In this document: positions 14,530-45,461 of the stretch, one piece after another
How positions within the stretch are numbered: the first letter of the stretch is position 1
Layout of the letters: each line of letters opens with the position of its first letter
NCBI GenBank assembly: GCA_041391245.1
Contig: JAWKOJ010000020.1
Span: 33,345 to 97,344 of the forward strand
DNA from: Caldilineales bacterium
Lineage (GTDB): Bacteria > Chloroflexota > Anaerolineae > JAAEKA01
DNA: 64,000 bases
Reading direction: 5' to 3'
The notes under the pieces: model-generated
Told to the model about the DNA's origin: nothing
The model's input: only the letters and a program-made list of their open reading frames with translations
The model's database searches: none
Position numbers and translations under genes: made by a program

Positions 14530-14540
14530 AGGAGCAACCT

Positions 14541-15681
14541 ATGCACACCGACTCATGGCAATCTGTTGGTCCGACCCTGGACGAGTGCATCAAGTGCAAC
14601 ATCTGTGCCAGCTACTGCCCGGTGGCGGAGGTGACCGACCTGTTCCCCGGACCGAAGTACGTTGGACCGCAGGCGCAGCGCTTCCGCGAGAACGGCCAAC
14701 CGCGCACCCCCGACCACTCGGTGGACTACTGCTCCGGTTGCCGCGTCTGCAACGAGGTCTGTCCGACCGGCGTGCGCATCACCGAGATCAACACCCGGGC
14801 ACGCGCCCAGTTGGCCGCTGAGAACGGCATCCCGCTGCGCAACCGGATGCTCGGCCGCAACGACGTGCTGGCCAAGCTGGGGAGCATCGTCCCGGGGCTG
14901 GCCAACTTCGGCCTGCACAATGGGCTGAGCGCGCCCTGGCCGACTCGGTCATGGGCATCTCCAAGGGCGCGCAGCTGCCCCGCTGGAGCCGACGACACCT
15001 TCGCCAAGTGGATGAAGAAGAGCGCTGCCCGGCGGCTGCAGTCCGACAAGAAGGTGGTCTTCTACCACGGCTGCTCGACCCAATGCACGAGCCGTTCGTC
15101 AGCAAGGCGGCGGTGGCGGTCTTCGAGCACCACGGCTACGAGGTGGTGGTGCCGGAGCAGGGCTGCTGCGGGCTGCCGCTGCTGAACAACGCCGAGTTCC
15201 CGGCGGCCGCGAAGTATCACCAGCGCAACCTCGACTGGCTGGTGCCATACGCCCGCCAGGGCTACGCCATCGTCGGCACCAGCACCAGTTGCACGCTGAC
15301 GCTGAAGGAGGAGGCGCCGGAGATGCTGGACATGCACAGCCCGGAGGCCCACGACCTGACCATGGCCGTCTGGGACATGTTCGAATGGCTGATGGAGCTG
15401 CGCGACTCCGATCAGCTCAAGACCGATTTCCGTCCGCTGCCCATGGTGCTGCCCTACCACGCGCCCTGCCAGTACCGCGCTCACCGCATCGGCTCGCCCG
15501 CGCTGGAGATCATGCGCTTGATACCGGAGCTGGACATCCGCGAGCCATGCCCGCTGCTGCGGCGGCCGGCACCTACGTCTACAAGAAGGAGAAGTACCAG
15601 ATCGCGATGGACGTCGGTCAGGAGCTGTTCGACTTCGTCAAGGCGCAGGGTGCCGATGTCAATGACGTCGTGCAACTCTGA
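14541..15681 (+). pseudogene. glpC: anaerobic glycerol-3-phosphate dehydrogenase subunit C, reading frame broken by at least 4 frameshifts (sequencing indels or true pseudogene)
   Basis: N-terminus MHTDSWQSV...CIKCNICASYCP...CSGCRVCNEVCP (two 4Fe-4S motifs) in frame 0. The recognisable GlpC-like sequence then alternates between frames near 14940, 15000, 15085 and 15558 (LSAP | LADSVMGISKGAQLPRWSRR | TFAKWMKKSAARRLQSDKKVVFYHGC | PFVSKAAVAVFEHHGYEV...EPCPL | AAAGTYVYKKEKYQIAMDVGQELF). Confidence 0.75.
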
Positions 15682-15792
15682 GACGTGTCGCTGGCACATC
15701 GAGACCGGCACCGACCTCCCCTGCCGCCATCCCATCGAGATCCGCCGCGGCCTATGGGCTGTACGACCTGGACAAGCGGGATTTAGTAGCAC

Positions 15793-15975
15793 CGTAACAC
15801 AATTTTCAAATTGTGTCTGGCGTTGGCAAGAGAGCGGCAAGACAATTTGGAAAATCGTCCTGCGCGAGCTGCCTGCCGCCGCTGGTCGTAACACAATTTT
15901 CCAAATTGTGACTGGCGTCGACAAGAGAGCGGCATGACGATTTGGAAAATCGTCCTACGCATCCTGCTGGCCGCA
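15793..15975. repeat. tandem direct repeat (2 x ~94 bp, ~88% identity), each unit carrying AT-rich palindromic sites
   Basis: Unit 1 runs 15793-15886, unit 2 runs 15887-~15975. Each has ACACAATTTTCAAATTGTGT (perfect inverted repeat) and ACAATTTGGAAAATCG (its half-site in opposite orientation). Lies between the glpC stop and the fbp start. Confidence 0.8.
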
Positions 15976-16014
15976 ACGCTCACGCTGCGGCCTTCGTTTC
16001 CGAGGAGATAGCCG

Positions 16015-17962
16015 GTGGAGAACGACAACAACAACCTGCGCTACCTGGAACTGCTGGCGGCGGTATCCGACCATCCGGCGGCATCGACCGAGATCATCAA
16101 CCTGAGCGCCATCCTCAACCTGCCCAAGGGGACGGAGCACTTCCTGTCCGACATCACGGCGAGTACGAGGCGTTCCTGCACGTGCTGAAAAACGGATCAG
16201 GATCGCTGCGCCGCCGCATTGAGGAACTGTTCCGCGACAGCACGCTCGACACGGAACGGCGCATCCTGTGCTGCTGATCTACTACCCGGACGAGATGCTG
16301 TCATGGCTGCCTGCTTTGTTCGCCCCGAGGATGTGGACGACTGGTACCGCGTCACGCTGTTCCGCCTGACGCGGGTGTGCAAGTCGGTGTCGTCCAAGTA
16401 TACCCGCTCCAAGGTGCGCAAGGCGCTGCCGCCGGCCTTCGCCTACATCATCGAGGAGCTGCTGCACGAGAACGAGGCGTCGGAGAACAAGCACGAGTAC
16501 TACCTCAGCATCATCGACACCATCATCTCCACCAGGCGCGCGCCGGCCTTCATCGCTGCCATGGCCGAGCTGATCCAGCGCATGAACATCGACCACCTGC
16601 ACATCATCGGAGACGTGTACGACCGCGGACCAGGTGCGCACATCATCATGGATGCGCTGCTGGACTACCACTTCGCTGGACTTTCAGTGGGGCACCACGA
16701 CATCCTGTGGATGAAACGGCGGCCGGCAGCGACGCCACCATCGCCAACGTGATCCGCATCTGCCTGCGCTATTCAACATGGAAACCTGGAAGGCGGCTAC
16801 GGCATCCGCATGCTGCCGCTGGCGACCTTGCCATGAACGTCTGCGGATGATCCATGCCGCCAGTTCCGTCCCAAGCCGGGCGACGAAGTACACCGAGAAC
16901 GAGCAACTGTTGATGCGCATGCAGAAGGCCATCAGCATCATCCAGTTGAAGCTGGAAGCGCAGGTGATCCGACGTCATCGGGTTCAGAGATGGACGACCG
17001 GCTGCTGCTGGACAAGATCGACTACGCCCGCGGCGTGATCACGCTGGACGGGCAGGAATACGCGCTCAACGACACCAACTTCCCGACGGTCGATCCGAAC
17101 GATCCGTACCGGCTGACCGAAGAGGAGCAGGGGGTGGTAGACCGCCTGCGGCTGTCGTTTCCTGGAGAACGATGGCCTGCAGCAGCACAGTGGCGTTGCT
17201 GTTTCGCCGCGGCAGCATGTACCTGCGCTTCAACGGCAACCTGCTCTACCACGGCTGCATTCCCATGGACGGCGCTGGCGCGTTCCAGACGGTGACGCTG
17301 GACGGGCAGCCGGTGGCCGGCAAGGCGTACCTCGACCAGATCGATCGCCTGGTGCGGCAGGGCTACGTGTCACGTGCCCCTGAGCAGCGCGGTTCGGGCA
17401 GGACATGATGTGGTACCAATGGACCGGTCCCAAGTCGCCGCTTTTCGGCAAGCAGAAGATGGCGACGTTCGAGCGCTATTTCATCGACGACAAGGCCACC
17501 CATGCCGAGGGGCGCAACGCATACTACACCTTCCGCGACCAGGAGGAGACGGTCAGGCGCATCCTGGTAGAGTTCGACATGGACCCCGACACGTCGCACA
17601 TCGTCAACGGCCATGTACCCGTCAAGGTGCGCCGCGGCGAAAGCCCGGTCAAGGCCGGCGGCAGGCTGCTGGTGATCGACGGCGGCTTTGCGCGCGCCTA
17701 TCAAAACGAAACCGGCATCGCCGGCTACACGCTGATCTTCAACTCCTACGGCCTGCTGCTGGCCGCGCACGAGCCGTTCCAGTCGGTACAGAGCCTGATC
17801 GACAGCGGCACAGACATGCAGAGCAAGACGCAGATCCTGCAGGCCAACACCCGTCGCATCCGCGTGCGCGACACCGACCTGGGCCGCAACATTCAGGGTC
17901 AGATCGACGACCTGCAAGGGCTGCTGGCTGCCTACCGCGCCGGTCTCATCAAGGAGCGGTAG
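16015..17962 (+). pseudogene. fbp: fructose-1,6-bisphosphatase class III (Fbp/YydE-type), fragmented by at least 5 frameshifts
   Basis: GTG start after GAGGAG RBS: [16 protein letters not shown]...[30 protein letters not shown]; later [11 protein letters not shown] (metallophosphoesterase motif), ...[10 protein letters not shown]..., ...HIVNGHVPVKV...LLVIDGGFARAYQNETGIAGYTLIFNSYGL, spread over ORFs 15942..16277, 16219..16752, 16990..17295, 17172..17408, 17405..17962 in different frames. Confidence 0.7.
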
Positions 17963-18150
17963 GTCGTGCCCTCCGATGTAGTGCTGATCGGTCCCAGCGA
18001 GGCCGGAAAAACCACTCTGGCAAGGCTGCCCATTTCGTTCGCCACCCGTCCAACTATCTCCTCGCAAAGCACATTGTCTACACCGAGGGCAAGACGCCGC
18101 GGCAGACCGCCGATGAAATCATGGAGCGTCTCGACGGTCTGCCGCCGGTG

Positions 18151-20166
18151 TCATAGCGCGCTGTAGACGGGGCGTACTTCTATCCCGTAGCGCCCCCGGC
18201 TGTCCTGCGCTTCCCGGTTGTCCACGCGGACGATGATCACCAGCGCGCCGGCCAGTTGTTCGCCGGTTTCGTTCAGCAGAAGATTCGCGACCTGTCCGCG
18301 GCTGTCTGCGACCGGTATCCTGTCCGCCGCAGGCACGGTGCTGATGATGTTGCCGCCGGTATCGATCCCCAGCACCTGCACGTCGAACTCGGCTGGGCTG
18401 CCTGCGGCGCCACGCACTTCTATCTCAACGGGCATGCCCCGCACGCCCGGCTCAAACTCGATTTGCACGAAGTCGATGCCGTAGCTGCTGCCGATGCCGC
18501 GCGGCGCCGGCAGGTTCTGCGGATCGAAGCGGACGGCAGCGGGCGGAAAGCTGATGGTTTCCGAAGCCGGGCGGGCGAACTGCTGCCCGGGATCGTAGAG
18601 ACCGGTGCCATCCGGCGATCCGTAGATCGCACGGGCAAAGCTGCGCAGGCTCTCCTCGTATGTCCGAAACGGGCTGTTCGGCGTCCGCGCCAGGCCGCGG
18701 CCGACGATCTCCGGCAGGTACCTGACCAGGTCACTCGACATGTTGATGTCCACGACCTCGCCGCTGTACAGCGTTTGCAGGACGTTGCGCAGCACGGCCA
18801 TGCCAGCCGCCGGATCGTCCAGGCCCCCGGCTGCCTCGAACAGGAACCGCCAGTAGAGCGCGCCTTGGTACGGATTCAACTCAGCATAGCTGGCGTTCAG
18901 CGCCTCGTTTCCGTTCAGGAACGCGTTCGACCAGGAGTAAAACGCCCGGACCGCGCTGCCAGCCCCGTATTCCAGGTCTGGCCGCGCTACCGACTGCACT
19001 GCCACCGCCATACCCTCGGTGATGAACGCCCAGGCGCGGCCCGGCCCGTCCACGTCGCCCTCGCCTGCCAGATGCTGCCGCAGGTCGCGCTGCAGGTTGT
19101 GGAACAACTCGTGGTTGAACGTGCTCACGATGCCGTCGGCCAGGGTGGCGTACTCACTGCTCAACCCGCTGCTGACATTGATCGCGATGCTGGAGCTGGC
19201 GCCGGCCGGAGCGCCGCCGTGGAACCATGTCGAGCCGTCGCCCAGAGCCACGCTCAGCCGCTCGGCGTCTTCGCCGCCCCGCAGGCCCGTCCACGCCGCG
19301 TGCCAGGTGAAGCCCCACTCGTTGGACTGCACGCGGAACGCCTCGACCAGCTCCGGCAGCACCGTTGCGCCTACAAAGTCGTCGACCTCCGCACGCGCCA
19401 GCCGGGTATCAGGCTGGCCGGCCACCCGCTGGAATGGCACCATGTCGGTGTACCAGATGACCAGCGAGTCCGGCGCAGCGCCCGGCGTGTCTTCGGCGGC
19501 TGCCGGCAGTGACGTGAGCCACTGGCTTTCCAACAAGAAGGCGACTTGCGTTTCCATGATGGTCGAGCGGCCACTGCTGCTGGTGACGCTCAGCATCAGA
19601 CTGTAGTAGTCGGTGGGTGTCGCGATTTCGGGTGCAACGCCGCTACTGTCGTCGAACGTGACCGTGAGCGTCACTGCGTCTCCGGTGGTCCAGCTTGACA
19701 GGTCTTCGACCAGCAAAGGGCGGGCGTTTTCGCCGCCGTCGGGATCGGAATGAACAGTGGACAACTCCAGGCTCACCAGCGCGCCGGTCGGATCGACATC
19801 CAGACCGGTCACGACAACCGCCAGCGTCCGCTCGAGGGCGTCGGTCAGTTGTCCGTTGCGGCGCAACACCAGGCGTGGCAGGTTCAGCGGTTGTGACTTG
19901 ACGCCGTCGATCTCCTTGCCGTTCTGGGTCATGAACCAGATCATGTCGCCGTTCGCGGCGGCCAGAGCCAGCGAAGCGTCTCTTTCTGCCGGCGCTGCTT
20001 CAACTGCCGACGGAGCCGCGACCGGCGCCGCAGGCTGGCTGGCAACAGCAGCGCCGCTCCAAATCTGGGTCGTCGCCGCCAGCCCTGCCAGCAAGCCGAA
20101 AATGCGGTTGACACGGCCTGGTTTGCGTGATATTCTTTTGCCACTGAAAGTGTTTGGGATTGCCAT
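18151..20166 (-). CDS. secreted protein with HExxH zinc-metalloprotease-like motif (family unassigned)
   Basis: Signal peptide RIFGLLAGLAATTQIWSGAAVAS; motif FNHELFHNLQ; no further family-level match recognised by eye. Confidence 0.5.
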   Translation of the reverse strand: MAIPNTFSGKRISRKPGRVNRIFGLLAGLAATTQIWSGAAVASQPAAPVAAPSAVEAAPAERDASLALAAANGDMIWFMTQNGKEIDGVKSQPLNLPRLVLRRNGQLTDALERTLAVVVTGLDVDPTGALVSLELSTVHSDPDGGENARPLLVEDLSSWTTGDAVTLTVTFDDSSGVAPEIATPTDYYSLMLSVTSSSGRSTIMETQVAFLLESQWLTSLPAAAEDTPGAAPDSLVIWYTDMVPFQRVAGQPDTRLARAEVDDFVGATVLPELVEAFRVQSNEWGFTWHAAWTGLRGGEDAERLSVALGDGSTWFHGGAPAGASSSIAINVSSGLSSEYATLADGIVSTFNHELFHNLQRDLRQHLAGEGDVDGPGRAWAFITEGMAVAVQSVARPDLEYGAGSAVRAFYSWSNAFLNGNEALNASYAELNPYQGALYWRFLFEAAGGLDDPAAGMAVLRNVLQTLYSGEVVDINMSSDLVRYLPEIVGRGLARTPNSPFRTYEESLRSFARAIYGSPDGTGLYDPGQQFARPASETISFPPAAVRFDPQNLPAPRGIGSSYGIDFVQIEFEPGVRGMPVEIEVRGAAGSPAEFDVQVLGIDTGGNIISTVPAADRIPVADSRGQVANLLLNETGEQLAGALVIIVRVDNREAQDSRGRYGIEVRPVYSAL

Positions 20167-20247
20167 CTCGCTGCTCCTGTTGCCTGCCGGCAAACTGTGT
20201 CTGTCACAGTGCAGTCTAAGGAGCGCGAGTCGGACATATGTTGGCAG

Positions 20248-20270
20248 ACGCGTTGATTAACGCGTTGATT
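20248..20270. promoter_or_regulatory. tandem 11-bp direct repeats (ACGCGTTGATT x2) upstream of the SARP-family regulator
   Basis: ACGCGTTGATTA-ACGCGTTGATT sits ~185 bp upstream of the regulator start in the divergent promoter region. SARP regulators characteristically bind direct heptamer repeats with 11-bp periodicity. Confidence 0.3.
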
Positions 20271-20452
20271 CTTATGGACGCGCACGCTGTGCCGTGTCCG
20301 GATTTGCACCCCAACCCTCCGCTGCAACCGCAGAAGACTGACCTCGTGAACACCTTGATCGTACAGCGAATGGCGGCGTTTCGATATGAATGGTGTCACA
20401 GCTTTGCTATGAACCGCGTCACACTTGTTGGTAGCTTGGCGAGGGAGTTCCT

Positions 20453-23400
20453 ATGAATGGCGTTCGGCTGTTTGTCCTCGGGCCCCCACACCTGGAGCGC
20501 AACAAGGAGACAATTGACCTGCGGCGCCAGTCACTGACGCTGCTGGGGTATCTGGCTGTGTCCGGCGAGCGGCACCACCGCGACCGCCTGGCAGGGCTTT
20601 TCTGGCCCGACGCTGATCCGAAGCGCGCCTATGCCAACCTGCGCCACCTGTTATGGGAGCTGAACAAGGCGCTGGGAGACGGGATTCTGGACGCCGACCG
20701 CGAGACGGTGGCAGTGGCCGCGGAGGCAGGTCTGTGGACCGATCTGCACGCGTTCCGGGACCTGCTGGCTGCGACCCGCGCCCACGGCCACGCCGAGAAC
20801 GCCGTCTGTCCCCGCTGCATCGCGCCGCTGAGCGATGCAGTCGCGCTGGCCCGCGGGCGCCTGCTGGAGGGCGCTGCTGTGGCCGGCAGCGCGGAGTTCG
20901 ACGACTGGTTGTATTTCGCCGCCGATGAACAGCGAGTCGAACTGCAAAGCGCGCTGCGCAGGCTGGTGGCGATCTACGCCCGCAAGCGCGATCTGAGCGG
21001 GGCCATCGAGGCGGGGCGCCGCTGGCTGCAGCTGGACCCGCTGGACGAGGAAGCGCATCGCCAGGCAATGCTGGTGTACGCGCTGGCCGGCCAACGCAAC
21101 GCCGCACTGCGCCAGTACGAGGAGTGCAAGCGCATTCTGGACGAGGAGTTGGGCGTTGCGCCCGACGCGCGCACGCAGGCGCTGATGGAGAACATTCGTC
21201 GGGGCGCGCTCCAGGAGATGGCCGCTGAACGCGATGCGGTCGTCGTTCTAACCGAAACCGCCGAGCAGCCTGGCCGGCAGACCCCGGCGCCTACGCGGGC
21301 AAGACGACGCAATCTACCCGCGCAGGTGTCGCCGTTCGTCGGGCGGGACGCAGAACTGGCCGACCTGACCCGTCTGCTCGAAACACCCGACGTTCGCCTG
21401 GTCACCATCCTGGGCGTAGGCGGTATGGGCAAGACACAACTGGCCGTCGCCCTGGCTGCAGACGCCGAGTGCCACTTCGAGCACGGCGTCTGCTTCGTCG
21501 CGCTGGCGGCCGTGTCCTCGGATGAGGCGATCATGTCGGCCGTCTCAGACGCCTTCGAACTGCCGGCCCAGGAAGGCGTTGACCTGGCGCAAGTGGTAGG
21601 TGACTACCTGGCAGGAAAAGAGATACTGCTGGTGCTCGACAACGCCGAGCATCTGGCGGGAGCAGCTTCAGCGGTCAGCGCGCTGCTGGCCATGGGGGCG
21701 GGCATCAAGATCGTGGTGACGTCGCGCCAGCCGCTGCATCTGCAAAACGAAACAATCTACGCGCTGTCCGGGCTGGGACTGGCGGCCTCGGGCAGCGAAG
21801 AGGGCATCGCTATCTCCGACGCGGCGCGCCTGTTCGTGCAGTGCGCACGGCGTTTTCAGCCCGGTTTCCGGCTCTCAGCCGAGGACGCGCATCAGGTTGC
21901 GCGCATCTGCCAGGCGGTGGACGGGATGCCGCTGGGAATCCTGCTGGCTGCCGGCTGGATTGAGCTGCTCTCGCCGCGCGAGATCGCCGACGAGATCGAG
22001 CGCAGCATCGACCTTCTGGCGACCGAACTGAAGGATATCCCGGACCGGCAGCGCAGCCTGCGCACCGTCCTGTCGCAGACATGGGAGATGCTCAGCCGGC
22101 GGGAGCAGCAGATTCTGATGGCGCTGTCGCTGTGCCGCGGCGGATTCGACCGCGACGCGGCCGGGGAGATCGCCGGCGCGTCGCTGCGCGATCTGTTGGG
22201 TCTGGCCAACAAGTCACTGGTGCAGCGCAAGGCAGTCGGGCGGTTTGACATGCACGAGCTGCTGCGCCAGTTTGCCGGAGAGATGCTGGCGGCGGGCCAG
22301 GCAGCCTCCGAGGCCGCCCGCCGCGCCTACGGCGACTGGTATGGCACACGCGCCGCCCAGTGGGGACAGGCGCTTACCGGCCCGGATCAGCAACGGGCCG
22401 TCCAACTGTTTCGCGCAGACCTGGCCAACATCGAGGCCGCGCTGAAGTGGGCAGCCGACCACGGGCTGTCCGACTGGCTGAAGGAAGCATGTGAAGGCGT
22501 GGGGATCTACTACTTTCAGTATTACGAGCACTTCGAGCGCGCTGATGCACTTTTTCGCTCGGTCTGCGAGCGACTGGATCGTGTCTGGTCAACGCCGTCG
22601 ATGCACGAAAAGGACCTGCTGGCCTACGCTCTGGCCTGGCAAGCCTTCTTTCACGCCCGCTATACGCGCCAAAGCGACCTGGATGACATGTTGCGTCGCT
22701 GCCATGATCTCCTGCCGGCGCCGGACCAGGATACACCTGAGACCACATTTACGCGCGCGTTTGTTTACCTGGCAGAGGCGGACACGCCGTTGGACGTGCG
22801 TACGCGCGAGCCGTACTACTACCAGAGTCTTGTCCTCTTTCGGCAGGTCGGAGCGGATTGGTGGTCTGCAATGGTGCTGTTCGAGCTGGCAATCAACAAC
22901 TGGGCGATCGACGCGCCCACATCGGAGCGCGCGTTCCGAGAGTGTTTGGCGATCACAGAGCGATTGGGTGACCAGAGCGGGATGGCCGATTGCACGCTGG
23001 CGCTGGCGCGGCTGGCGGCGTTTCGTGACGGTGATATCGACCGTGCAACAGGACTATTTGCCCGTTCTGCCGTTATCAACCGCCAGCTCGGTGACCATGT
23101 CAGCCTGAGCAAGGCGCTGCAAGCTGACGAGGAGTTGGCCTTGATTCAAGGGCGTTTTCCGGATCTGGTTGAACTGCGCGAACGGCGGCTGGCCATGGCT
23201 GAGGATTTGGGATCGACCTATGGCATCGGTCTGTGCCAGATGCTGCTGAGTGAGGCATATCACATGGTTGGCAGATACCAGGACGCGCTGGCAATGGGGG
23301 AGCGTGCTGCGGCGACACAGGAGAAGCGCATCGAACATCATGGGCGGGGATGGCTGAGCTGGATCGTGGGGCTAGCGCTGCTGGCAGTGGAGCGACCGAG

Positions 23401-24400
23401 CGAAGCGTTGCACAAGTTTGAAAACAGCCTCGAAAGCTTTCGCGCCATTTCCGCTGAGTCATGGTATGCAAGCTCGTATCTTGGTCTTGCGCGCGCTTCA
23501 CTGGAGTTGGGAAACGCCGCGACCGCTCGTAGCTATCACTGCCAGACATTGGATTGGCTGCTGCGCCATCCCAACCCGTACTGGTTGGCCTACTGCTTCG
23601 GCAACGAGGCGCTGCGGCGGCTGGAGGCCGGCGATCCTGCGGGCGCGGTTGAGATCTACGCCCGGGCCGAGGCGTTCCCCTTTGTTGCCAACTCGATTTG
23701 GTTCACGGATGTCTACGGCGCGCGCGTCGGGGAGGCCGCCCGCAGCCTGCCCGATGCTGACGCCGATGCAGCGCGGTCACGGGGCGCGGCGCTGGACCTC
23801 TGGGAGACTGCGCCATCGCCGCCGCCTGCGAGGCTGCGGGCTAAGGTGGAACCCGGCCTCGACCCCTGGGAGGCGATGTGGGCGCCGTACGACGAGGCGA
23901 CCTACGCTTTTGTGCTCAGCCACATTCGCCCGGACGACGTGGTGCTGGACATCGGCGCCGGCGACCTGCGCCTGGCACGGCGCATGGCCGCGGTCGCCAG
24001 GCAGGTAATCGCGTGGGAGTCGCAGGCCGAGCTTTTTACGGGGAGCAACGTGCCGGGCAACTTGACTGTCAAATGCGCCGATGCGCGCGTTGAGCCGGCG
24101 CCGGAGGGCGTGACCGCGGCCGTGCTGCTGATGCGCCACTGCACGCACTACGCGTTGTATGTGAAGAAGCTGCGCGCCGCCGGCTGCCGCCAGCTGATCA
24201 CCAACGCGCGCTGGGGCATGGGGGTCGAGGTGGTCGATCTGGTGCCCGGCGCGCCGTTCTCCGCACTGGCGGTGGGCTGGTACGCCTGCCGGCGCTGCGG
24301 GGCCGTGGGCTTCGCCGGGGATGATCCGTCGGCCGTCACGCCGGAGAGATTCGACCAGACCGCGGACGTGGAAGGCTGCCCGCGCTGTCCGGTTGGTTGA
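20453..24400 (+). CDS. SARP (AfsR/DnrI)-family regulator: OmpR-type wHTH + BTAD + NB-ARC P-loop ATPase + TPR-like repeats + C-terminal class-I methyltransferase-like domain with Cys-rich zinc-ribbon
   Basis: N-terminus LFVLGPPHLERNKETIDLRRQSLTLLGYLAV...LWELNKALG (wHTH/BTAD). P-loop ILGVGGMGKTQLAVALA, LLVLDNAEHL (NB-ARC). C-terminus VVLDIGAGDLRLARRMA (SAM-MTase motif I-like) and CRRCGAVGF...CPRCPVG. Confidence 0.8.
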   Translation: MNGVRLFVLGPPHLERNKETIDLRRQSLTLLGYLAVSGERHHRDRLAGLFWPDADPKRAYANLRHLLWELNKALGDGILDADRETVAVAAEAGLWTDLHAFRDLLAATRAHGHAENAVCPRCIAPLSDAVALARGRLLEGAAVAGSAEFDDWLYFAADEQRVELQSALRRLVAIYARKRDLSGAIEAGRRWLQLDPLDEEAHRQAMLVYALAGQRNAALRQYEECKRILDEELGVAPDARTQALMENIRRGALQEMAAERDAVVVLTETAEQPGRQTPAPTRARRRNLPAQVSPFVGRDAELADLTRLLETPDVRLVTILGVGGMGKTQLAVALAADAECHFEHGVCFVALAAVSSDEAIMSAVSDAFELPAQEGVDLAQVVGDYLAGKEILLVLDNAEHLAGAASAVSALLAMGAGIKIVVTSRQPLHLQNETIYALSGLGLAASGSEEGIAISDAARLFVQCARRFQPGFRLSAEDAHQVARICQAVDGMPLGILLAAGWIELLSPREIADEIERSIDLLATELKDIPDRQRSLRTVLSQTWEMLSRREQQILMALSLCRGGFDRDAAGEIAGASLRDLLGLANKSLVQRKAVGRFDMHELLRQFAGEMLAAGQAASEAARRAYGDWYGTRAAQWGQALTGPDQQRAVQLFRADLANIEAALKWAADHGLSDWLKEACEGVGIYYFQYYEHFERADALFRSVCERLDRVWSTPSMHEKDLLAYALAWQAFFHARYTRQSDLDDMLRRCHDLLPAPDQDTPETTFTRAFVYLAEADTPLDVRTREPYYYQSLVLFRQVGADWWSAMVLFELAINNWAIDAPTSERAFRECLAITERLGDQSGMADCTLALARLAAFRDGDIDRATGLFARSAVINRQLGDHVSLSKALQADEELALIQGRFPDLVELRERRLAMAEDLGSTYGIGLCQMLLSEAYHMVGRYQDALAMGERAAATQEKRIEHHGRGWLSWIVGLALLAVERPSEALHKFENSLESFRAISAESWYASSYLGLARASLELGNAATARSYHCQTLDWLLRHPNPYWLAYCFGNEALRRLEAGDPAGAVEIYARAEAFPFVANSIWFTDVYGARVGEAARSLPDADADAARSRGAALDLWETAPSPPPARLRAKVEPGLDPWEAMWAPYDEATYAFVLSHIRPDDVVLDIGAGDLRLARRMAAVARQVIAWESQAELFTGSNVPGNLTVKCADARVEPAPEGVTAAVLLMRHCTHYALYVKKLRAAGCRQLITNARWGMGVEVVDLVPGAPFSALAVGWYACRRCGAVGFAGDDPSAVTPERFDQTADVEGCPRCPVG

Positions 24401-24402
24401 TC

Positions 24403-24440
24403 CTCGCAACCGAACAGTTGCAACAGTTGCGAGTTGTTTT
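24403..24440 (+). terminator. palindromic hairpin plus T-tract between regulator and XPB gene
   Basis: CTCGCAAC-cgaacagttgcaacag-GTTGCGAG followed by TTGTTTT; also contains the tandem AACAGTTGC x2. Confidence 0.35.
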
Positions 24441-24485
24441 CAGGTTCTCGTCACATGGGGTAAACTATCTTTTCGGAGACCGTTC

Positions 24486-26288
24486 ATGCCCGTCAACCCA
24501 CTCAATCCCATGGTCGTGCAGAGCGACCACACCGTGTTGCTGGAGGTGGACAACCCTCAGTACGCCGAGGCGCGCGACGCGTTGGCGCGCTTTGCCGAAC
24601 TGGAGAAGAGCCCGGAGCACATCCACACCTACCGGCTTTCACCGCTGTCCTTGTGGAACGCCGCAGCCAGCGGACTTAACGCCGAGGGCATCGTCGAGAG
24701 CCTGGTGCGCTTTAGCAGATATGATGTGCCGGGCAACATCCAGGCCGATGTGCGCGATTACGTCAGCCGCTTTGGCCGGCTCAAGCTGCGCAGCGGCGCG
24801 AGCGGCGAGCTGTTGCTGACTGCCGATGATCCCCTGTTGTTGCTGGAGGTCAGCCGCAACCGCAAGGTGCGCCCGTTTATCCGCGAGGAGATCGATCGGC
24901 TGACGCTGCGGGTCGATCCCGCCTTACGCGGCCACATCAAGAAGGCGCTGGTGGACATCGGCTTCCCGGCCGAGGACCTGGCAGGCTACGTGGAGGGCGC
25001 CGGCCTGGCGCTGCACTTGCTACCGGCTATGCGGATTAGCGGCGAGCCCTTTGCGCTGCGCCACTACCAGCAGGATGCAGTCGAGGTGTTCCATGCCAGC
25101 GGATCGGCGCGCGGCGGTTCTGGCGTGGTGGTGTTGCCCTGTGGCGCCGGCAAGACATTGGTCGGCATGGGTGTGATGGAGAAGCTACAAACAAACACGC
25201 TGGTGTTGACTACCAACACCGTGGCCGTGCGCCAGTGGATCAGCGAACTACTCGACAAGACCAGCCTCGACCCGGGCGAGATCGGCGAGTACACCGGCGA
25301 TCTGAAGGAGATCAGGCCGGTTACGGTCACCACCTACCAGATCCTGACCTATCGCGAGCGGCGCAAGCGCGGCGCTGCCGACGCCGACGGTCAAAGCTGG
25401 TTCGACAACGATTCCGACGGCGACGACGAGTTGAGCCAGCCGCTGACGCCGGCCAACTTCCCCCACTTTGGCCTGTTTCGTGAGCGCGACTGGGGGTTGG
25501 TGATCTACGACGAGGTGCATTTGCTGCCGGCGCCCGTGTTCCGCATGACGGCCGAGCTGCAAGCGCGCCGCAGGCTGGGACTGACTGCTACTCTGGTGCG
25601 CGAGGACGGCAAGGAGGACCACGTCTTTGCCCTGATCGGCCCCAAGAAACACGACGTGCCCTGGAAGGACCTGGAGCGCCAGGGATGGATTGCCACCGCA
25701 CACTGTCACGAGATTCGCCTGGACATGGACCGGGAACAGCGGCTGGCTTACGCCATGGCCGGCAACCGGGAGCAGGCCGTGTTGGCCGCCACCGACCCTG
25801 CCAAGCTGCCCGTGGTCGAGCAGATCATCGCCAGGCACCCGGACGATCAGGTGCTGGTCATCGGCACCTACCTGGCGCAGCTTGAGGCGATGGCAGACCA
25901 GCTCAACGCGCCGCTGCTGACCGGCAAGACGCCGACGCGCGAGCGCCAGAAGCTCTACGGGCAGATGCGCGAAGGGTCGTTGCGCCGGCTGGTGGTCTCC
26001 AAGGTAGCCAACTTCGCCGTTGACCTGCCGGACGTCAGCGTGGCCATCGAGGTCAGCGGCACATTTGGCTCGCGGCAGGAGGAGGCGCAGCGTCTGGGCC
26101 GCATTCTGCGCCCCAAACGCGACGGGCGCCCGGCCCACTTCTATGCAATCGTCATGCGCGACACCAAGGACCAGACCTTCGCCGCCAAGCGCCAGATGTT
26201 TCTCACCGAACAGGGCTACAAGTACGAGATACTCTACCGCGACGACTTGCCCTCCTACGACCCGGAGCGGGACCATGCCATCTGGTGA
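24486..26288 (+). CDS. XPB/Ssl2 (ERCC3/RAD25)-family superfamily-2 DNA helicase
   Basis: N-terminal damage-recognition-like domain; helicase motifs LPCGAGKT (Walker A), IYDEVHLLPA (DEVH box), GLTATLVRED, later motifs consistent with XPB. Confidence 0.85.
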   Translation: MPVNPLNPMVVQSDHTVLLEVDNPQYAEARDALARFAELEKSPEHIHTYRLSPLSLWNAAASGLNAEGIVESLVRFSRYDVPGNIQADVRDYVSRFGRLKLRSGASGELLLTADDPLLLLEVSRNRKVRPFIREEIDRLTLRVDPALRGHIKKALVDIGFPAEDLAGYVEGAGLALHLLPAMRISGEPFALRHYQQDAVEVFHASGSARGGSGVVVLPCGAGKTLVGMGVMEKLQTNTLVLTTNTVAVRQWISELLDKTSLDPGEIGEYTGDLKEIRPVTVTTYQILTYRERRKRGAADADGQSWFDNDSDGDDELSQPLTPANFPHFGLFRERDWGLVIYDEVHLLPAPVFRMTAELQARRRLGLTATLVREDGKEDHVFALIGPKKHDVPWKDLERQGWIATAHCHEIRLDMDREQRLAYAMAGNREQAVLAATDPAKLPVVEQIIARHPDDQVLVIGTYLAQLEAMADQLNAPLLTGKTPTRERQKLYGQMREGSLRRLVVSKVANFAVDLPDVSVAIEVSGTFGSRQEEAQRLGRILRPKRDGRPAHFYAIVMRDTKDQTFAAKRQMFLTEQGYKYEILYRDDLPSYDPERDHAIW

Positions 26289-28083
26289 AGCCACTGCGCC
26301 GGTCGTTGATCGCGGCCACGGCCTCATGCTGGCTGAGCTGCGCCGCATGCTGGAGAGGACCACCGTTCAGGTGATGCGTCAGGCCGCGCGCCAGTGGGGC
26401 TGGACGCTCAGGGGCACGGCCAAAAACGACCTGGTCGAGCAGATGGTCAGCTATCTTGGCGACCCGTCGGTGATGGCCGAGGCTGTTCGCACGTTGACCG
26501 AAGAGGAAATCAACGTGCTGGGTTGGCTTGTGGCAACGGGACTGCAAGGCCTCTCGAAAAAGCAGTTCCAGGCTGCAATTTTCGAGGGCAGCGGGCTGCG
26601 CATCTCGCAGAAGGCCATCGAGGCGCATCTGGTGAGCCTGTCCGAACGCTGCCTGCTTTTTTACAGCGAGGAAGAAGGATATGAACTTCCGACGCTCTAT
26701 CACCAGTGGTTGCCGCGCCTGGCCGCGCCCAAACTGCAGTTTGCGCCGGTCGAGCGGCTCCAGATACCTTCGCCGCTCACCATCGCCGGCATCACCCAGC
26801 ACGCCCAACATCTCCTGAGCATGCTGGCGTCCGAACAGCCGCCCGCCACAGTGGCGAAGAAGCATACACCGCGCTACGGATCCGGCAAGGTTGAGCCCAT
26901 TGACCCGCGTCGGCCCAGCCTGGTCGCCGAGGAGACCCTGACCCGCTGGGGCTACGAAGCGCCGGCAGATCAGCACCTGGCGCGTTTCCTGCTGGAGCAG
27001 TTGGCCAACGCCCGCGTGTGCCGCGTGAAGACCGAGCGAGACGCCACGCTCATGGAGGTGGACGACGCAAGAAACCGGGCCTGGGAGATCGCCACGGCCG
27101 CCGAGCGCCTGGAGCGGCTGCGTCGCGCCTATGTCAAGCTGTCCGGCGAGGGCGAAGCACGATTGAATTCCTGGAGCGAGTGGGACATGGTGTTCAGCCA
27201 GGATCGGGATGAGACACTGCAGTCGAAAGGTCCATGGGTCACTGCCGATATGGTGCTGCGGCAGATCCAGGTGTTGGGTGTCTGGTTCAGCACCCTGATT
27301 GCCGGCCTGCAAACCGATACCTGGTATGGCATCGAGCAGTTTTGCAAGCTGGTGTATCGGACGAAGAGCGACTTGATGACCGCGGCATCGGTGATCTCGC
27401 AGTTCTTTTGGGCTGTGGACGGCAAGGTACAGTATGCAGATCAACTGCCCTTCGACCGCTGGATGACAACCTACGGTCGTCTGGTGCAGGCCTGGCTGAC
27501 CGGCCCGGCCAGGTGGCTGCTGTTCGTGCAAATTGCGACCATCGGCGATCAGCCGGTTGCCTTTCGCCGCCCGGCGGCGCTGCCGGCCGGGGTCGCGTCG
27601 CCCGCGCCGCCCGGCTCGCTGCGGTTCATGGACAGCGGCAACATTGCCCTGATCAACGACTGGCGCGTCAGCGACCTGCGCCGCCTGCTGCAACTGATCA
27701 GCGTCGAGGTGGCACGCAATGATAAGACAACGCTGTTGCGGCTGGACACCGGCGCATTTCGCAACACGCTCGGATCAGGCATGAATGCGCAAGATGTCGG
27801 CAAGGCCTTTGCCGCGGCTGGGTTTCCCCTGCCGGTGGATGTACAGGCGACGCTGCAAACCTGGCAGGGCCGCGTCGGCCGCTATCAGCTTTACGATCAG
27901 GTGGCCGTGGTGGAGTTTGGCGAGGACGTCCTGCCGGAGGAGATGCGCGTCATCGGCCGGCTGACCAGCGCCGAGTACTACCAGACCGGGCCGCGCTGTC
28001 TGATTTTCCCCGATCCAGAGGCCGCTCCCGCGTTGGTTGAGGAGATGCGCCGCCGGGGCTACACGCCGCAGGTGATGCCGTGA
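26275..28083 (+). CDS. uncharacterised protein, translationally coupled to XPB helicase (partner 1, 602 aa)
   Basis: ATG at 26275 overlaps the XPB stop by 14 nt. Long ORF with no internal stops in a high-GC context, and the antisense ORFs are shorter. No recognisable catalytic motif. Confidence 0.7.
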   Translation: MPSGEATAPVVDRGHGLMLAELRRMLERTTVQVMRQAARQWGWTLRGTAKNDLVEQMVSYLGDPSVMAEAVRTLTEEEINVLGWLVATGLQGLSKKQFQAAIFEGSGLRISQKAIEAHLVSLSERCLLFYSEEEGYELPTLYHQWLPRLAAPKLQFAPVERLQIPSPLTIAGITQHAQHLLSMLASEQPPATVAKKHTPRYGSGKVEPIDPRRPSLVAEETLTRWGYEAPADQHLARFLLEQLANARVCRVKTERDATLMEVDDARNRAWEIATAAERLERLRRAYVKLSGEGEARLNSWSEWDMVFSQDRDETLQSKGPWVTADMVLRQIQVLGVWFSTLIAGLQTDTWYGIEQFCKLVYRTKSDLMTAASVISQFFWAVDGKVQYADQLPFDRWMTTYGRLVQAWLTGPARWLLFVQIATIGDQPVAFRRPAALPAGVASPAPPGSLRFMDSGNIALINDWRVSDLRRLLQLISVEVARNDKTTLLRLDTGAFRNTLGSGMNAQDVGKAFAAAGFPLPVDVQATLQTWQGRVGRYQLYDQVAVVEFGEDVLPEEMRVIGRLTSAEYYQTGPRCLIFPDPEAAPALVEEMRRRGYTPQVMP

Positions 28084-30461
28084 CGCCGCCGCCCCTCGCT
28101 GCCGCACTGGACCAATTCAACAGCAATGTTCTGGGCAGCGTGCTTTACGCAGCCGGTGTGTCCGATGTGCCAAAGGCGAAGAACGCCAAGGTGCGTCTTT
28201 GGCTGACGCTGGTTGGCGACCCGGACCGCATCCACCGCTCGCTGGCCCAACTGACACCGGTCGCCCGCCGGTCGCTGGAGCTGTTGCAGAGCGCAGGCGG
28301 CGAGATGCGCACGAATCGCTTCCAAGGCCTGCTGGCGCGGTTGGGTGTCGTGTCCCAGCAAACGGAGTCGCCTTACGACAGTTACGGCTCTCGTCGATTG
28401 AGCCAGACATCGGCCCGGCAAGACAAGTCGGGCAAGCCACTCTTTTCAGCGGTGCTGGAGGATCTCCTGCGTTCGGGCCTGATCTGGACGCACACGCTGC
28501 GTCCAGGCTTGCCTGGCAATGCCAAGATCGGCTTCGAGGGCGGGTGGTACGTCTACATTCCCGACGAAGTCGCGGGACATCTGCCGCCTCTTCCTGTCAA
28601 AGACTATGCCGTGCCCGAACTGGTGCAAACGCTGGAAGGCTCCGCGCGCACCTGCCAGCGCGACCTGTACCTGGTATGGAGCGCGGCCCGCGAAGCACCG
28701 TTGCAGCTTGTGAACACCGGCCTGCTGCGGGTCAGCGATCTCAAGCGCGTGGCCGGCCAACTATTGCTGACCGAAACCATCGCCACCGGCACAAAAGAGA
28801 ACGACTATCGTCGCATCTTCTTCCTGCGCCGGTTGGCCGCTTCGCTGGGGCTGCTGGCCTACGACGCGATCGGCAATCAGCTTCAGGCGAACGCCTCGCC
28901 TGCCTTCATCTCCCAGACGCCGACGGAGCGAGTGCGGCTGAGCTTCAACCATTGGCGTGACGGCGACTGGTACAATGAGCTCGTCGCCACAGTAACCGGT
29001 TCCCAAGCGCAACCAGGGAGCTTGCTGGCCAACCCGGCGCCTCCCCAGCTTGCATCGGCGCGGCGGACGGTGCTGGATACGCTGGCGACCCTGGTGCAAC
29101 GGGCCGAACGCAAACATCGCACTACGGCGCCCTGGGTGCCATTGGAGGGCATCAGTGACTACCTGCGGGAACGCAAGGATGAGTTTCTGGTGGACCGGAC
29201 CACTGCCGAGGAGCGCGCGGCCAGCTACCGCTACTACTACGGCGCGGGCTTCTATTCGCCCTACGAGCACAACCGTCTGGGCTGGTCATGGCCGGCGTAT
29301 ACACGCAACGAGGAAGCTGGATGGAACGGGGTGGAGCGGGTCTTCATCGAGACCGTCCTGACCGAGGGCGCATACTGGTTGGGACTGGTCGATCTCGGCT
29401 ACGCGGAGCCGGTGACGCCGGCAAGCGGCCCAGCGCCGGGCGGCGTGGCGGCCGTGCGGTTGACCGACATGGGCCGCTGGCTGCTGCTGAATGGTCCGGC
29501 GCCCGAAGTCCCGGAGGAAAGCGGCCGGGTCGTGGTGCAGCCCAATTTTCGTATCTTCGCCTTCGACCCCATCGCCGACACGGTGCTGGCACGGCTCGAC
29601 AGCTTTGCCAGCCGGCAAAACGTCGAACGGGCCATCGAGTACGAACTGACGAGGGAAACGCTCTACCGCGCCCAACTGAATGGACAGAGCGCCGGTCAGG
29701 TTGATGCCTGGCTGCAGGAGGTGACCGGCGCGCCGCTGCCGCAGAACGTGGCGCGCAGCCTGGAGGAGTGGCAGGCTGCCTACGAGCGGATCACCGTGCG
29801 CAGCCGCGTCGGCTGGGTGGAGGCGGCCGCGCCTGAGCTGGTTGAGGCGCTGCTCAACGATCCTCGCTGGGACCAGGCAGTCGTCAAGCGCGCTACGCCA
29901 ACGGGCTTGATCGTGCGGGCCGACCGCATCGAGGAGATGGAGCGCGCCTTGCTGAAGGCTGGCGAGTTGCCGGTGCGCAACAACGACCCGGAGGCCGCTC
30001 GCCGGAGAAGCATCACGGTGGACGAGGAGGGCCGGATCGGCTTTCTCCACGCCATCCCCAGCCTGTACGTCTGCGGCTATCTGCGCCCCTTCAGTGAGGA
30101 GCGGGCGACTGGCTGGCAGATCACGGCGCGCAGCGTGACGCAGGCCGGCGCGGCGGGGCTGGATGCCGCCGCCATCCTGAGCCGTTTGAACGCAATGGCG
30201 GTCGGCGGTGTGCCGCCGGCCTTGCAAACCCGGATCAAGGCCTGGAGCCAGCACTACGGCGCCGCTGTTGTGCAGACCCTTACCCTGGTGCAGTTCCGCG
30301 ATCAGGATGCCCTGGATGAGTTGCGCACCGATCCGATGCTGGCGCGCTGTTTGACACCCTTCAAACCCGAAGCAAGGCTCGGGCTGGCCGTGGTCGCGCC
30401 GGACGACCTGGCGTCGCTGGAAGCGCTGCTCGAGGAACGCGGCGTGGAGGTACGCCGGTAG
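28080..30461 (+). CDS. uncharacterised protein, translationally coupled (GTGA overlap) to partner 1 (partner 2, 793 aa)
   Basis: GTG start at 28080 overlaps the TGA of the upstream gene. 793-aa ORF; no recognisable family by eye. Confidence 0.7.
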   Translation: MTPPPLAAALDQFNSNVLGSVLYAAGVSDVPKAKNAKVRLWLTLVGDPDRIHRSLAQLTPVARRSLELLQSAGGEMRTNRFQGLLARLGVVSQQTESPYDSYGSRRLSQTSARQDKSGKPLFSAVLEDLLRSGLIWTHTLRPGLPGNAKIGFEGGWYVYIPDEVAGHLPPLPVKDYAVPELVQTLEGSARTCQRDLYLVWSAAREAPLQLVNTGLLRVSDLKRVAGQLLLTETIATGTKENDYRRIFFLRRLAASLGLLAYDAIGNQLQANASPAFISQTPTERVRLSFNHWRDGDWYNELVATVTGSQAQPGSLLANPAPPQLASARRTVLDTLATLVQRAERKHRTTAPWVPLEGISDYLRERKDEFLVDRTTAEERAASYRYYYGAGFYSPYEHNRLGWSWPAYTRNEEAGWNGVERVFIETVLTEGAYWLGLVDLGYAEPVTPASGPAPGGVAAVRLTDMGRWLLLNGPAPEVPEESGRVVVQPNFRIFAFDPIADTVLARLDSFASRQNVERAIEYELTRETLYRAQLNGQSAGQVDAWLQEVTGAPLPQNVARSLEEWQAAYERITVRSRVGWVEAAAPELVEALLNDPRWDQAVVKRATPTGLIVRADRIEEMERALLKAGELPVRNNDPEAARRRSITVDEEGRIGFLHAIPSLYVCGYLRPFSEERATGWQITARSVTQAGAAGLDAAAILSRLNAMAVGGVPPALQTRIKAWSQHYGAAVVQTLTLVQFRDQDALDELRTDPMLARCLTPFKPEARLGLAVVAPDDLASLEALLEERGVEVRR

Positions 30462-39967: not shown

Positions 39968-40316
39968 GCTCCGCGGGCAGGCAATGTAGTGCCGGTCTCC
40001 CAGCCAGCGCTGAAGCCGGCGAACAGTGATTTAGCCAGTCCTCGAGCGATGGTTGTAGGTTGTCAGACGGCGGTGTCGTGGCATGGACGCCTGCCACAAC
40101 TGGACGCCCATTACCGGTCCCTGATCGCTTTCGTTCAGCGGGATTGTATCACCTTTGGCAGGATGCGCCCAAGTATCCAAGCATGCGGATTAAGTTGTGG
40201 CTCGGTCGAGATGCCTTTGTTTCCACTTCCCGTACCGAGAGAGGGGTGAAAAACGGAACGCCAGCCGGCATCAAAGTGATGCCGGCTGGCGAGTCACGGT
40301 GTGATCCAGCAACCAG

Positions 40317-41345: not shown

Positions 41346-41375
41346 CGCGTTACTCCTTTAGAATCTTTCCATCCC

Positions 41376-41648
41376 CTACTGATAGAAATAGGGGTCCAAC
41401 ACAGTCACGGCTGTAATACTGTCGACAGGCAGGTTGTTCCGCCGGGCGGCCTCGCGAATCGCCTCGGGTGATGGCGCATCGTAGATACAGAATGTCTTCT
41501 TCTTATCGCCAGTCACGTAGGAGTGCAGCCATGTCACGTCGCCCTGCAGATTGTTGCCCACCACCGTCATGCAGACTTGCGCCCCCTGCTCGCTCACCGG
41601 GATGGCCAAGCCGTCGGGAAATGTGCGTTCGACCAGATACCGAGCCAC
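41376..41648 (-). CDS. small conserved protein (DUF4242-like)
   Basis: VARYLVERTFPDGLAIPVSEQGAQVCMTVVGNNLQGDVTWLHSYVTGDKKKTFCIYDAPSPEAIREAARRNNLP; GTG start. Confidence 0.5.
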   Translation of the reverse strand: MARYLVERTFPDGLAIPVSEQGAQVCMTVVGNNLQGDVTWLHSYVTGDKKKTFCIYDAPSPEAIREAARRNNLPVDSITAVTVLDPYFYQ

Positions 41649-41843
41649 GATTATTCTCCTTTTGGTGTGAATTGAGCTGTTTGGCTGCAAACCAGCCACA
41701 GACGAACCCGAACTAACCGAAGCATATCATATCGTCGCCTCGCTGTCGTCAGGGAAAACTCTACAGCAGGTTTGATCGCCCCTCTACAAAAAACGGTACG
41801 GGGCGTCAGAGGATGAGGTGGGGAAGCACTGAGGATGGACGCT

Positions 41844-45286: not shown

Positions 45287-45461
45287 ACGGTGCAGTCAGG
45301 TCACAGGGTTGGCCTCGTCGGTGATGAAACCGACGAGGCTCGTAGGGTGTACTCCGGTGCCTATTGACATATGCCTGTTGCTCCACGTATGTCGTGGATG
45401 GCTGAAGTCGTTTCGGAGTCTCAATTCACGGAGAGATCGTTGCATGTTCGAATGAAGTTTG

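Follow-up and report, generated by a model that had tools for sequence, protein, structure and literature searches.

The window analysed here is the whole stretch of 64,000 nucleotides from a Chloroflexota (Caldilineales) MAG. At 20453-24400 (+) it contains an open frame of 1315 codons running from ATG to TGA with no interruption, in the same direction as the XPB gene downstream. As in the original prediction, which described it as an AfsR-type regulator fused to a methyltransferase-like and zinc-ribbon domain, the ORF could be found together with all the quoted motifs, namely GVGGMGKTQLAV (Walker A), LLVLDNAEHL (Walker B), VVLDIGAGDLRLARRMA and CRRC...CPRC. NCBI, too, annotates the whole ORF as one protein of 1315 aa, called "BTAD domain-containing regulator" (MEZ4770156.1). 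Comparison with related loci, referred to below as L007, L008, L009 and L012, led to a different list of features, in which the ORF is divided into a regulator gene and a second gene (gene 2):

18151..20193, minus strand: orf680, whose product looks secreted, has an HELFH (HExxH) motif and matches nothing in Pfam
20194..20452, intergenic: divergent region between orf680 (minus) and the regulator gene (plus), 88% identical to L012
20453..23844, plus strand: large SARP (AfsR-type) regulator gene, from Pfam, the NCBIfam AfsR model, the AfsR 8k60 alignment and the orthologue P0253
about 20453-21200, plus strand: winged-helix and BTAD part of the regulator
about 21330-22280, plus strand: NB-ARC part of the regulator
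about 22370-23810, plus strand: TPR region of the regulator
23806..23814, plus strand: site of a 4-bp deletion, from DNA alignment with L007, L008 and L009 and the indel list against L012
23812..23844, plus strand: remnant of the regulator's 3' end, read in the ancestral frame, from translations
23846..24400, plus strand: gene 2, a stand-alone methyltransferase-like gene, 184 codons long and starting at GTG, from homologues, family alignment, AlphaFold2, Foldseek and a PDB profile match
24401..24485, plus strand: gap of 85 bp before the XPB gene, which starts at ATG 24486

The AfsR-type N-terminus was borne out for residues 1-1131, in which Pfam recognized BTAD (residues 96-249, E = 2.5e-18), NB-ARC (residues 306-426, E = 4.1e-07) and TPR_12 (E = 3.1e-10). 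The NCBIfam AfsR model covers residues 3-426 (profile positions 28-436), with residues 3-95 aligned to its DNA-binding part, and residues 4-609 align to AfsR itself (PDB 8k60), starting from residue 25 of that structure. Since no match to Pfam Trans_reg_C was reported for the N-terminus, the winged helix is less well supported than BTAD. The NB-ARC domain has both its Walker A (GVGGMGKT) and Walker B (LLVLDN) motifs and can also be aligned with plant NLR NB-ARC domains. The domain characters of a large SARP were all found in the regulator, i.e. a DNA-binding domain with BTAD, a central NB-ARC/STAND NTPase, and a TPR array with a length of ~1000 aa. Against the AfsR equivalog NF053617 (NCBIfam), however, it scores 86.1 bits for a curated cut-off of 1430, and it is therefore not an AfsR orthologue. 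Its own orthologue P0253 has 1129 aa and an identity of 88%, and belongs to a cluster of 27 members from several independent assemblies in which every full-length member has 1129 aa. The next homologues (~40% identity) have 1122-1129 aa and adjoin neither a methyltransferase nor an XPB gene; most homologues measure 950-1290 aa, apart from a few multidomain proteins of ~1900-1980 aa. By its sequence, the part up to residue 1131 is a large AfsR-type regulator of the ordinary kind.

The methyltransferase-like part corresponds to residues 1132-1315 of the fused ORF, and here too the prediction of a SAM-methyltransferase-like domain with a cysteine cluster proved genuine, in the last ~184 residues. 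Homologous proteins numbered 1903, with identities up to 76%, and every one of the best 120 of them is 182-260 aa long. When 1.84 billion cluster representatives were searched exhaustively, 131 matched, none of them longer than 309 aa. A homologue with 51% identity is carried by L077 (Anaerolinea thermophila). The core carries motif I (LDIGAGD) and the acidic residues E58 and D79, followed by a zinc ribbon (C148, C151, C178 and C181). The four cysteines are invariant across the family alignment, as are LDIGAGD and W57-E58, and the domain in the window keeps every family-invariant residue. The AlphaFold2 model of the C-terminal part has a mean pLDDT of 89.6. By Foldseek it has the class-I methyltransferase Rossmann fold, matching ErmE, Dim1, CbiT and TrmI, and ErmE and Dim1 were superposed over ~115 residues with an rmsd of 2.3-3.0. 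Dim1 was also found by profile search of the PDB (E = 4e-06), its glutamate being aligned with E58. The marks of a class-I methyltransferase fold are therefore all present, namely a Rossmann-like core, a motif I rich in glycine and, after strand 2, an acidic residue, and the gene 2 product is, on the modelled structure, a SAM-methyltransferase-like protein with a zinc ribbon. The possibility that the C-terminus is degenerate TPR or a chance motif was ruled out by this well-folded and strongly conserved domain.

The family has no Pfam or NCBIfam model. The Pfam RrnaAD profile reached 19.8 bits, below its gathering threshold of 24, and matched only profile positions 26-66 of 263, which does not allow classification as an rRNA adenine dimethylase. 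Some sources give family members the name KsgA/Dim1/Erm rRNA adenine dimethylase.

In Chloroflexota gene 2 belongs to glycerol/dihydroxyacetone gene clusters. At the loci of 80 species it lies after glpC or fbp and before a DJ-1/PfpI or DhaM-like PTS gene, with glp and/or DhaM-like PTS genes adjoining it in nearly all of them, and the order of the cluster is glpK-glpABC-(fbp)-X-(DJ-1/PfpI)-DhaM-like PTS protein, where X is gene 2. Among these 80 loci the regulator gene is found upstream of gene 2 only in L012, and only in the window and L012 do orf680 and the regulator gene stand as a joint insertion between fbp and gene 2.

The domain combination had been regarded as unusual, but in the nearest relative the regulator and gene 2 are distinct genes, with a single nucleotide between the stop of the one and the start of the other (TAA-g-GTG). 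The window retains both the TAA of the regulator's ancestral frame (23842-23844) and the GTG of gene 2 (23846). What it lacks is 4 bp (GCGC) in the GCGCGCGC GC run ~30 nt upstream of the TAA, where it reads ACT-GCGCC and its relatives ACT-GCGCGCGCC. Across the junction L007, L008, L009 and L012 read ...ACTGCGCGCGCCATC...GCGGACTAAgGTGAAG, and the window ...ACTGCGCCATC...GCGGGCTAAgGTGGAA. The deletion is a -1 frame shift in the regulator; with 4 bp missing, the regulator frame slides into the frame of gene 2 and the TAA is read through. The old frame can still be read behind the deletion, ending in AIAAACEAAG plus TAA in the window and AIAAACEAAD plus TAA in L007, whereas in the fused frame 23812-23844 becomes a linker, ...SPPPARLRAK. 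Three nucleotides differ from L007 in this linker; each of them alters the amino acid in the fused frame, but two are silent in the old one. The junction is thus not free of relics, as that of an evolved fusion should be: the stop, the start and the old-frame tail are all kept. Apart from the deletion, 3.9 kb of the ORF are intact and 89% identical to the orthologue, which speaks against an error in the assembly. An indel in the relatives rather than in the window was ruled out by the uniform full-length regulator orthologues from independent assemblies and by the stand-alone gene 2 family.

No other fused regulator-methyltransferase protein was found in the best 120 of the 1903 homologues, among the 131 cluster-representative matches or at the 80 species loci, and the 1315-aa protein of the window is a singleton in the databases, so recurrence of a SARP-STAND::methyltransferase architecture was not observed. 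Neither the metagenome scan nor the genome scan gave a closer relative or another assembly of the species in question, and an exact look-up of the 1315-aa protein returned no contig.

The quality of the assembly also bears on the junction. In the window glpC and the class-III FBPase gene (fbp) carry ~28 frame-changing indels of 1-3 nt relative to L012, mostly deletions and several in GC/CG runs. At codon positions 1/2/3, glpC is nevertheless 93/95/69% identical and fbp 90/92/67%, which is also the pattern of the intact neighbouring genes, and this mark of purifying selection despite the indels indicates assembly indel errors. The idea of old pseudogenes was ruled out, as positions 1 and 2 keep at least 90% identity with about 68% at position 3. 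One STAND-TPR-LuxR gene and one solute-binding-protein gene are also split across frames, which brings the genes of the window broken by error-like indels, beside the fused ORF, to at least four. Outside glpC and fbp, the 7.3 kb aligned to L012 contain one uncompensated frameshift, the junction itself, 5.8 kb away from the dense indel cluster, and the 6.3 kb around the junction contain no other. Errors are therefore dense only locally, a point against an error at the junction. A hidden Markov model of GC by codon position, run over the whole window, was used only to pick regions for Pfam checks, being too coarse for frameshift counts.

These facts suggest that the 1315-codon ORF consists of two neighbouring genes joined by a frameshift, the missing 4 bp being most probably an assembly or sequencing error, a reading to which we give a probability of about 0.75. 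An error is favoured because dozens of similar deletion-biased indels lie in genes under purifying selection. In the ancestor of the window and L012 species, the divergent pair orf680/regulator would have been inserted between fbp and gene 2, which would have left the regulator TAA one base before the gene 2 GTG. In the window, 4 bp of the GC run are missing, and the regulator frame enters that of gene 2. Because two neighbours have been merged by a 4-bp deletion in an indel-rich assembly, it is very unlikely that the ORF represents a new protein architecture. Whether error or mutation, gene 2 should still be translatable from its own GTG.

A real and very recent fusion, in which two GC units were lost by slippage and the regulator became tethered to a methyltransferase-like domain not yet under selection, is the unlikely but strongest competitor. 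The deletion falls within a dinucleotide repeat, and the (GC)n run is a natural slippage hot spot, so a genuine mutation keeps some weight. The junction is moreover the only such frameshift in its surroundings, the downstream domain retains all its conserved residues, and NCBI annotates one protein. Against it stand the singleton status and lack of recurrence of the protein, the kept stop, start and old-frame peptide with linker substitutions mostly synonymous in the old frame only, and the other broken genes of the window. If the loss of 4 bp is real, it would be a very recent one-off mutation.

It had further been proposed that the ORF encodes an evolved signal-gated switch, with the methyltransferase-like/zinc-ribbon domain as sensor of a STAND regulator controlling the XPB cassette. 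The shared direction and 85-bp spacing of the regulator ORF and XPB are consistent with this, and STAND homologues with extra C-terminal domains do exist, such as P0257 with its solute-binding-protein domains. However, in 80/80 species-level loci no XPB, orf687 or orf793 occurs at a distance of up to 9 kb from the methyltransferase-like gene, so a conserved regulator-XPB neighbourhood was seen in 0/80, and none of the three lies beside the orthologue of the regulator in L012. Synteny with L012 ends at 24387 and breaks exactly after the gene 2 stop codon. Downstream of gene 2, L012 and L007 have ADH/CBS, acyl-CoA dehydrogenase and DUF6986 genes, and the sole other lineage in which the regulator adjoins gene 2 has an ADH/CBS gene there, not XPB. 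The gap, given as 86 bp with a hairpin, is 85 bp long, while the hairpin does occur, as an 8-bp inverted repeat CTCGCAAC/GTTGCGAG at 24403-24433 followed by a T-rich run TTGTTTTC, and these elements separate the two units. The gap also contains a 9-nt tandem repeat, AACAGTTGC x2 at 24413-24430. The terminator scan did not call the hairpin because its loop is 15 nt, and its folding was no better than that of shuffled sequence (z = 0.0).

Nor were SARP-type repeats shared by the two units. The motif TATGAANNGNGTCACA has two copies, both upstream of the regulator gene, and one site with 2 mismatches at 30350-30365 within orf793, near its 3' end; it was not found upstream of XPB, where the one GTCACA hexamer, at 24450, is no more than would be expected by chance. 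A common operator of the regulator and XPB was ruled out on these two grounds. With a domain combination that appears in no other protein retrieved, such an XPB switch is very improbable. Large SARPs activate transcription from promoters in which they bind direct repeats in or close to the -35 region. The region 20194-20452 is a candidate operator of the regulator. There, upstream of the regulator gene, a conserved direct repeat of 21 nt occupies 20380-20400 and 20403-20423, and an 11-nt unit, ACGCGTTGATT, is repeated in tandem over 20248-20270. The more likely regulatory partner is orf680, and the regulator would act most plausibly on the conserved divergent promoter which it shares with orf680, not on XPB.

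An antiviral, Avs-like STAND defence protein with a C-terminal sensor is hardly credible at all, since its general likeness (NTPase, repeats and an extra domain) is opposed by a SARP DNA-binding/BTAD module as in AfsR at the N-terminus, by a "sensor" that is a separate gene of a housekeeping cluster, and by PADLOC, in which no Avs/NLR model matches the protein and the sole match is the generic methyltransferase-region model mad2 (3.6e-06) on the C-terminal part.

Taken at face value, the ORF would have provided a new effector or sensor domain for SARP/STAND proteins and a regulator for a bacterial XPB cassette, and both ideas fall. If the deletion is genuine and the 1315-aa protein is made, it would capture the process by which STAND regulators gain C-terminal modules. 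MEZ4770156.1 is a warning that domain-architecture surveys which include MAG proteins will pick up such chimeras, and the small methyltransferase-like zinc-ribbon family is a side product possibly worth follow-up.

With annotation chimeras in draft or long-read MAGs the window has in common an indel near the upstream stop, a kept stop and start, a database singleton and nearby frameshifted genes, and on present evidence no feature distinguishes it from them. With the KsgA/Dim1/Erm enzymes the gene 2 product shares its Rossmann core, including motif I (LDIGAGD) and the acid after strand 2 (E58). However, it is short (~184 aa), and the C-terminal helical RNA-binding domain of KsgA/Erm is absent, the protein ending instead in the four-cysteine zinc ribbon. 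An N-L/I-P-Y-type motif IV is expected after strand 4 in KsgA/Dim1/Erm-type methyltransferases, where the gene 2 product has MRHC(T)H, and its family is found in the context of glycerol/dihydroxyacetone catabolism, not among ribosome genes.

The large SARPs of AfsR type, including AfsR, PolY and RslR3, form a class of 'about 1000 residues' (PMC10972967), which the regulator fits with ~1130 aa when the appended gene is left out, and their domain order (SARP DNA-binding and BTAD, NB-ARC with Walker A/B, TPR) is also that of the regulator. This one comes from Chloroflexota, not Streptomyces. Unlike them, it lies outside any biosynthetic gene cluster and has a secreted HExxH protein as its divergent partner, and while classical SARP sites are heptamers with an 11-nt period, its candidate repeat is a 21-mer with a 23-nt spacing.

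The uninterrupted ORF of 1315 codons in the window consists of two ordinary genes that a frameshift has merged into one reading frame, namely a large SARP (AfsR-type) regulator and a small methyltransferase-like, zinc-ribbon gene. The features around the junction are:

14535-15787, + strand, glpC
16021-17960, + strand, class-III fbp (Firmicute-type fructose-1,6-bisphosphatase)
18151-20193, - strand, orf680, secreted-looking, with a signal-peptide-like N-terminus and an HELFH (HExxH) motif
20194-20452, intergenic region common to orf680 and the regulator, 88% conserved
20248-20270, 11-nt tandem repeat ACGCGTTGATT within this intergenic region
20380-20400 and 20403-20423, 21-nt direct repeat within the same region
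20453-24400, + strand, the uninterrupted ORF (regulator 20453-23844, small gene 23846-24400)
24486-30461, + strand, XPB cassette of three genes

The original prediction described the sequence of the ORF accurately and its domain identifications were right; the quoted Walker A, Walker B, motif-I-like and cysteine motifs were all found. Pfam matched BTAD at residues 96-249 (2.5e-18), NB-ARC at residues 306-426 (4.1e-07) and TPR_12 (3.1e-10). Residues 3-426 aligned with the NCBIfam AfsR model, scoring 86 bits where 1430 is the cut-off, and residues 4-609, plus more TPR stretches, with AfsR (PDB 8k60).

For the last ~235 residues, only sub-threshold matches to RrnaAD and Methyltransf_25 were obtained from Pfam and NCBIfam, neither of which has a dedicated family for the small protein. 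Residues 1081-1315 retrieved 1903 proteins, and the best 120 of these (182-260 aa each, 55-76% identity) covered only the last ~180 query residues. HMMER, run exhaustively with residues 1132-1315 against 1.84 billion cluster representatives, produced 131 matches of at most 309 aa. The residues invariant in the family alignment (W8, E9, W12, P14, Y15, the G37-A-G-D40 motif, W57-E58, D79-A-R81, M96-R-H-C99, T119-N and cysteines C148, C151, C178 and C181) were all retained in the window's small protein. Its AlphaFold2 model had a mean pLDDT of 89.6, ~115 residues superposed on the class-I SAM-methyltransferase cores of ErmE, Dim1, CbiT and TrmI (Foldseek), a PDB profile search matched Dim1 at 4e-06 over strands 1-3, and 28 of 28 aligned family members matched RrnaAD only weakly. 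These results show the C-terminal part to be a genuine methyltransferase-like domain of minimal size that carries a four-cysteine zinc ribbon, in line with the original prediction. Its SAM-binding motifs are intact. The family is uncharacterised and strongly conserved (50-76% identity). The name 'rRNA adenine methyltransferase', used by some sources, is not supported by the evidence.

The fused protein of the window (NCBI MEZ4770156.1, from a MAG of Caldilineales bacterium) formed a singleton cluster. The orthologue cluster of the regulator (88% identical) had 27 members from NCBI, ENA and JGI assemblies, and all full-length members were 1129 aa. The next regulator homologues (~40% identical, 1129 and 1122 aa) adjoined ABC-transporter genes, and no methyltransferase or XPB gene was found near them. 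The closest homologue of the small protein (76% identical) was encoded directly after a TPR gene at four related loci, L007-L010, the TPR gene ending at 1977 and the small gene beginning at 1979. The junction DNA was GAAACTGCGCGCGCCATCGCTGCCGCTTGCGAGGCTGCGGACTAAgGTGAAGCCC in these relatives and GAGACTGCGCCATCGCCGCCGCCTGCGAGGCTGCGGGCTAAgGTGGAACCC in the window, where four bases (GCGC) were missing from a GC run at about 23810; the TAA of the regulator (23842-23844) and the GTG of the small gene (23846) were still present. In the relatives the frames of the two genes differ by +1, so the loss of 4 bp brings the regulator into frame with the small gene and bypasses the TAA. The old-frame tail reads AIAAACEAAG then stop in the window versus AIAAACEAAD then stop in L007. 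Of the three nucleotide changes that separate these two tails, two leave the amino acid of the old frame unaltered and every one replaces the residue read in the fused frame, a pattern that, though weak at n = 3, also points to two genes.

The deletion is most probably an assembly artefact (about 75%). Compared with the related locus L012, glpC and fbp carried ~28 frame-changing indels of 1-3 nt, mostly deletions, and were both broken into several ORFs. Several of these indels lay in GC/CG runs, such as GGCG[cg]GCGG and ATG[gcg]CGC, the same type of event as at the junction. Codon-position identities to L012 were 93/95/69% for glpC and 90/92/67% for fbp, indistinguishable from those of the intact glpB (88/94/69%) and regulator (93/94/74%). 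Because long drift would erase this pattern, the indels either arose as errors of assembly or sequencing or are implausibly recent, and the damage points to local assembly indel errors. Two more window genes were split across frames:

44375-41847, - strand, STAND P-loop/TPR/LuxR (GerE) regulator, in at least four ORFs across frames
50220-48912, - strand, solute-binding protein SBP_bac_8, with profile positions 1-84 in one ORF and 158-263 in another

A real one-off mutation would agree with GC repeats being natural slippage sites and with the lack of any other uncompensated frameshift versus L012 in the 7.3 kb around the junction; however, it is unlikely in view of the glpC/fbp indels with their preserved codon-position pattern and of these two split genes. 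The originally proposed fusion shares the very small remaining likelihood with all other readings. Separately, window positions 40000-48700 had a G+C of 0.50-0.58 versus ~0.65 elsewhere, much of this segment was non-coding or atypical in a codon-position GC model, and the segment may be of foreign origin or badly assembled.

The genomic context was compared across 80 species-representative Chloroflexota genomes and loci L001-L006. The small gene comes after glpA-glpB-glpC, in some cases with class-III FBPase intervening, and is followed by DJ-1/PfpI and/or a DhaM-like EIIA-HPr-EI protein; further upstream are DhaK/DhaL and glycerol kinase. The order of this glycerol/dihydroxyacetone cluster is glpK-glpABC-(fbp)-X-(DJ-1/PfpI)-DhaM-like PTS, X being the small gene, and glp and/or DhaM-like PTS genes adjoined it in nearly all of the 80 species loci. 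The small protein probably works with this pathway. Among the 80 loci the regulator was upstream of the small gene only in L012, a conspecific of L007-L010. The divergent pair of orf680 (no Pfam match) and regulator, co-inserted in the window and L012 only, separates fbp from the small gene in both, and in L037, the next closest genome, fbp directly abuts the small gene. It follows that regulator and small gene became neighbours when a metabolic cluster received an insertion; their adjacency is not a conserved functional pairing.

Neither the suggested link to the XPB cassette nor the proposed new SARP-STAND::methyltransferase architecture was supported. The cassette encodes an XPB/ERCC3-type helicase (Helicase_C_3, ResIII, ERCC3_RAD25_C), a ~600-690-aa ORF with no Pfam match and a 793-aa ORF with a Helicase_C_3 (XPB N-terminal-like) domain. 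In none of the 80 loci did a homologue of the helicase, orf687 or orf793 lie 9 kb or less from the small gene; L012 and L007 had ADH/CBS, acyl-CoA dehydrogenase and DUF6986 genes downstream. Nucleotide synteny with L012 spanned 13695 to 24387 and broke off where the small gene ends. The 85-bp gap before XPB, found in no relative, has an unexceptional fold; it contains an 8-bp inverted repeat CTCGCAAC/GTTGCGAG, within which lies a perfect 9-nt tandem repeat (AACAGTTGC x2, 24413-24430), and then a T-rich run TTGTTTTC. As for the suggested likeness to Avs proteins, no Avs-type model was found by PADLOC, where the sole similarity of the cassette was a weak one to PbeA, confined to the helicase core.

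A check for SARP-type direct repeats near the XPB promoter had also been suggested. The repeat upstream of the regulator (TATGAA-N2-G-N-GTCACA, present twice with a 23-nt spacing and conserved in L012) was absent upstream of XPB. The regulator would activate transcription from direct repeats, and its best candidate site would be the intergenic region shared with orf680, which is better conserved than third codon positions in the genes on either side. Another NB-ARC/TPR STAND paralogue (58588-59754, - strand) is ~31% identical to the NB-ARC region of the regulator, so this genome has more than one regulator of this type. The regulator itself has the complete set of a DNA-binding domain with BTAD, an NB-ARC nucleotide switch and TPR repeats, the same full domain set as known for the large SARPs of Streptomyces (PMC10972967).
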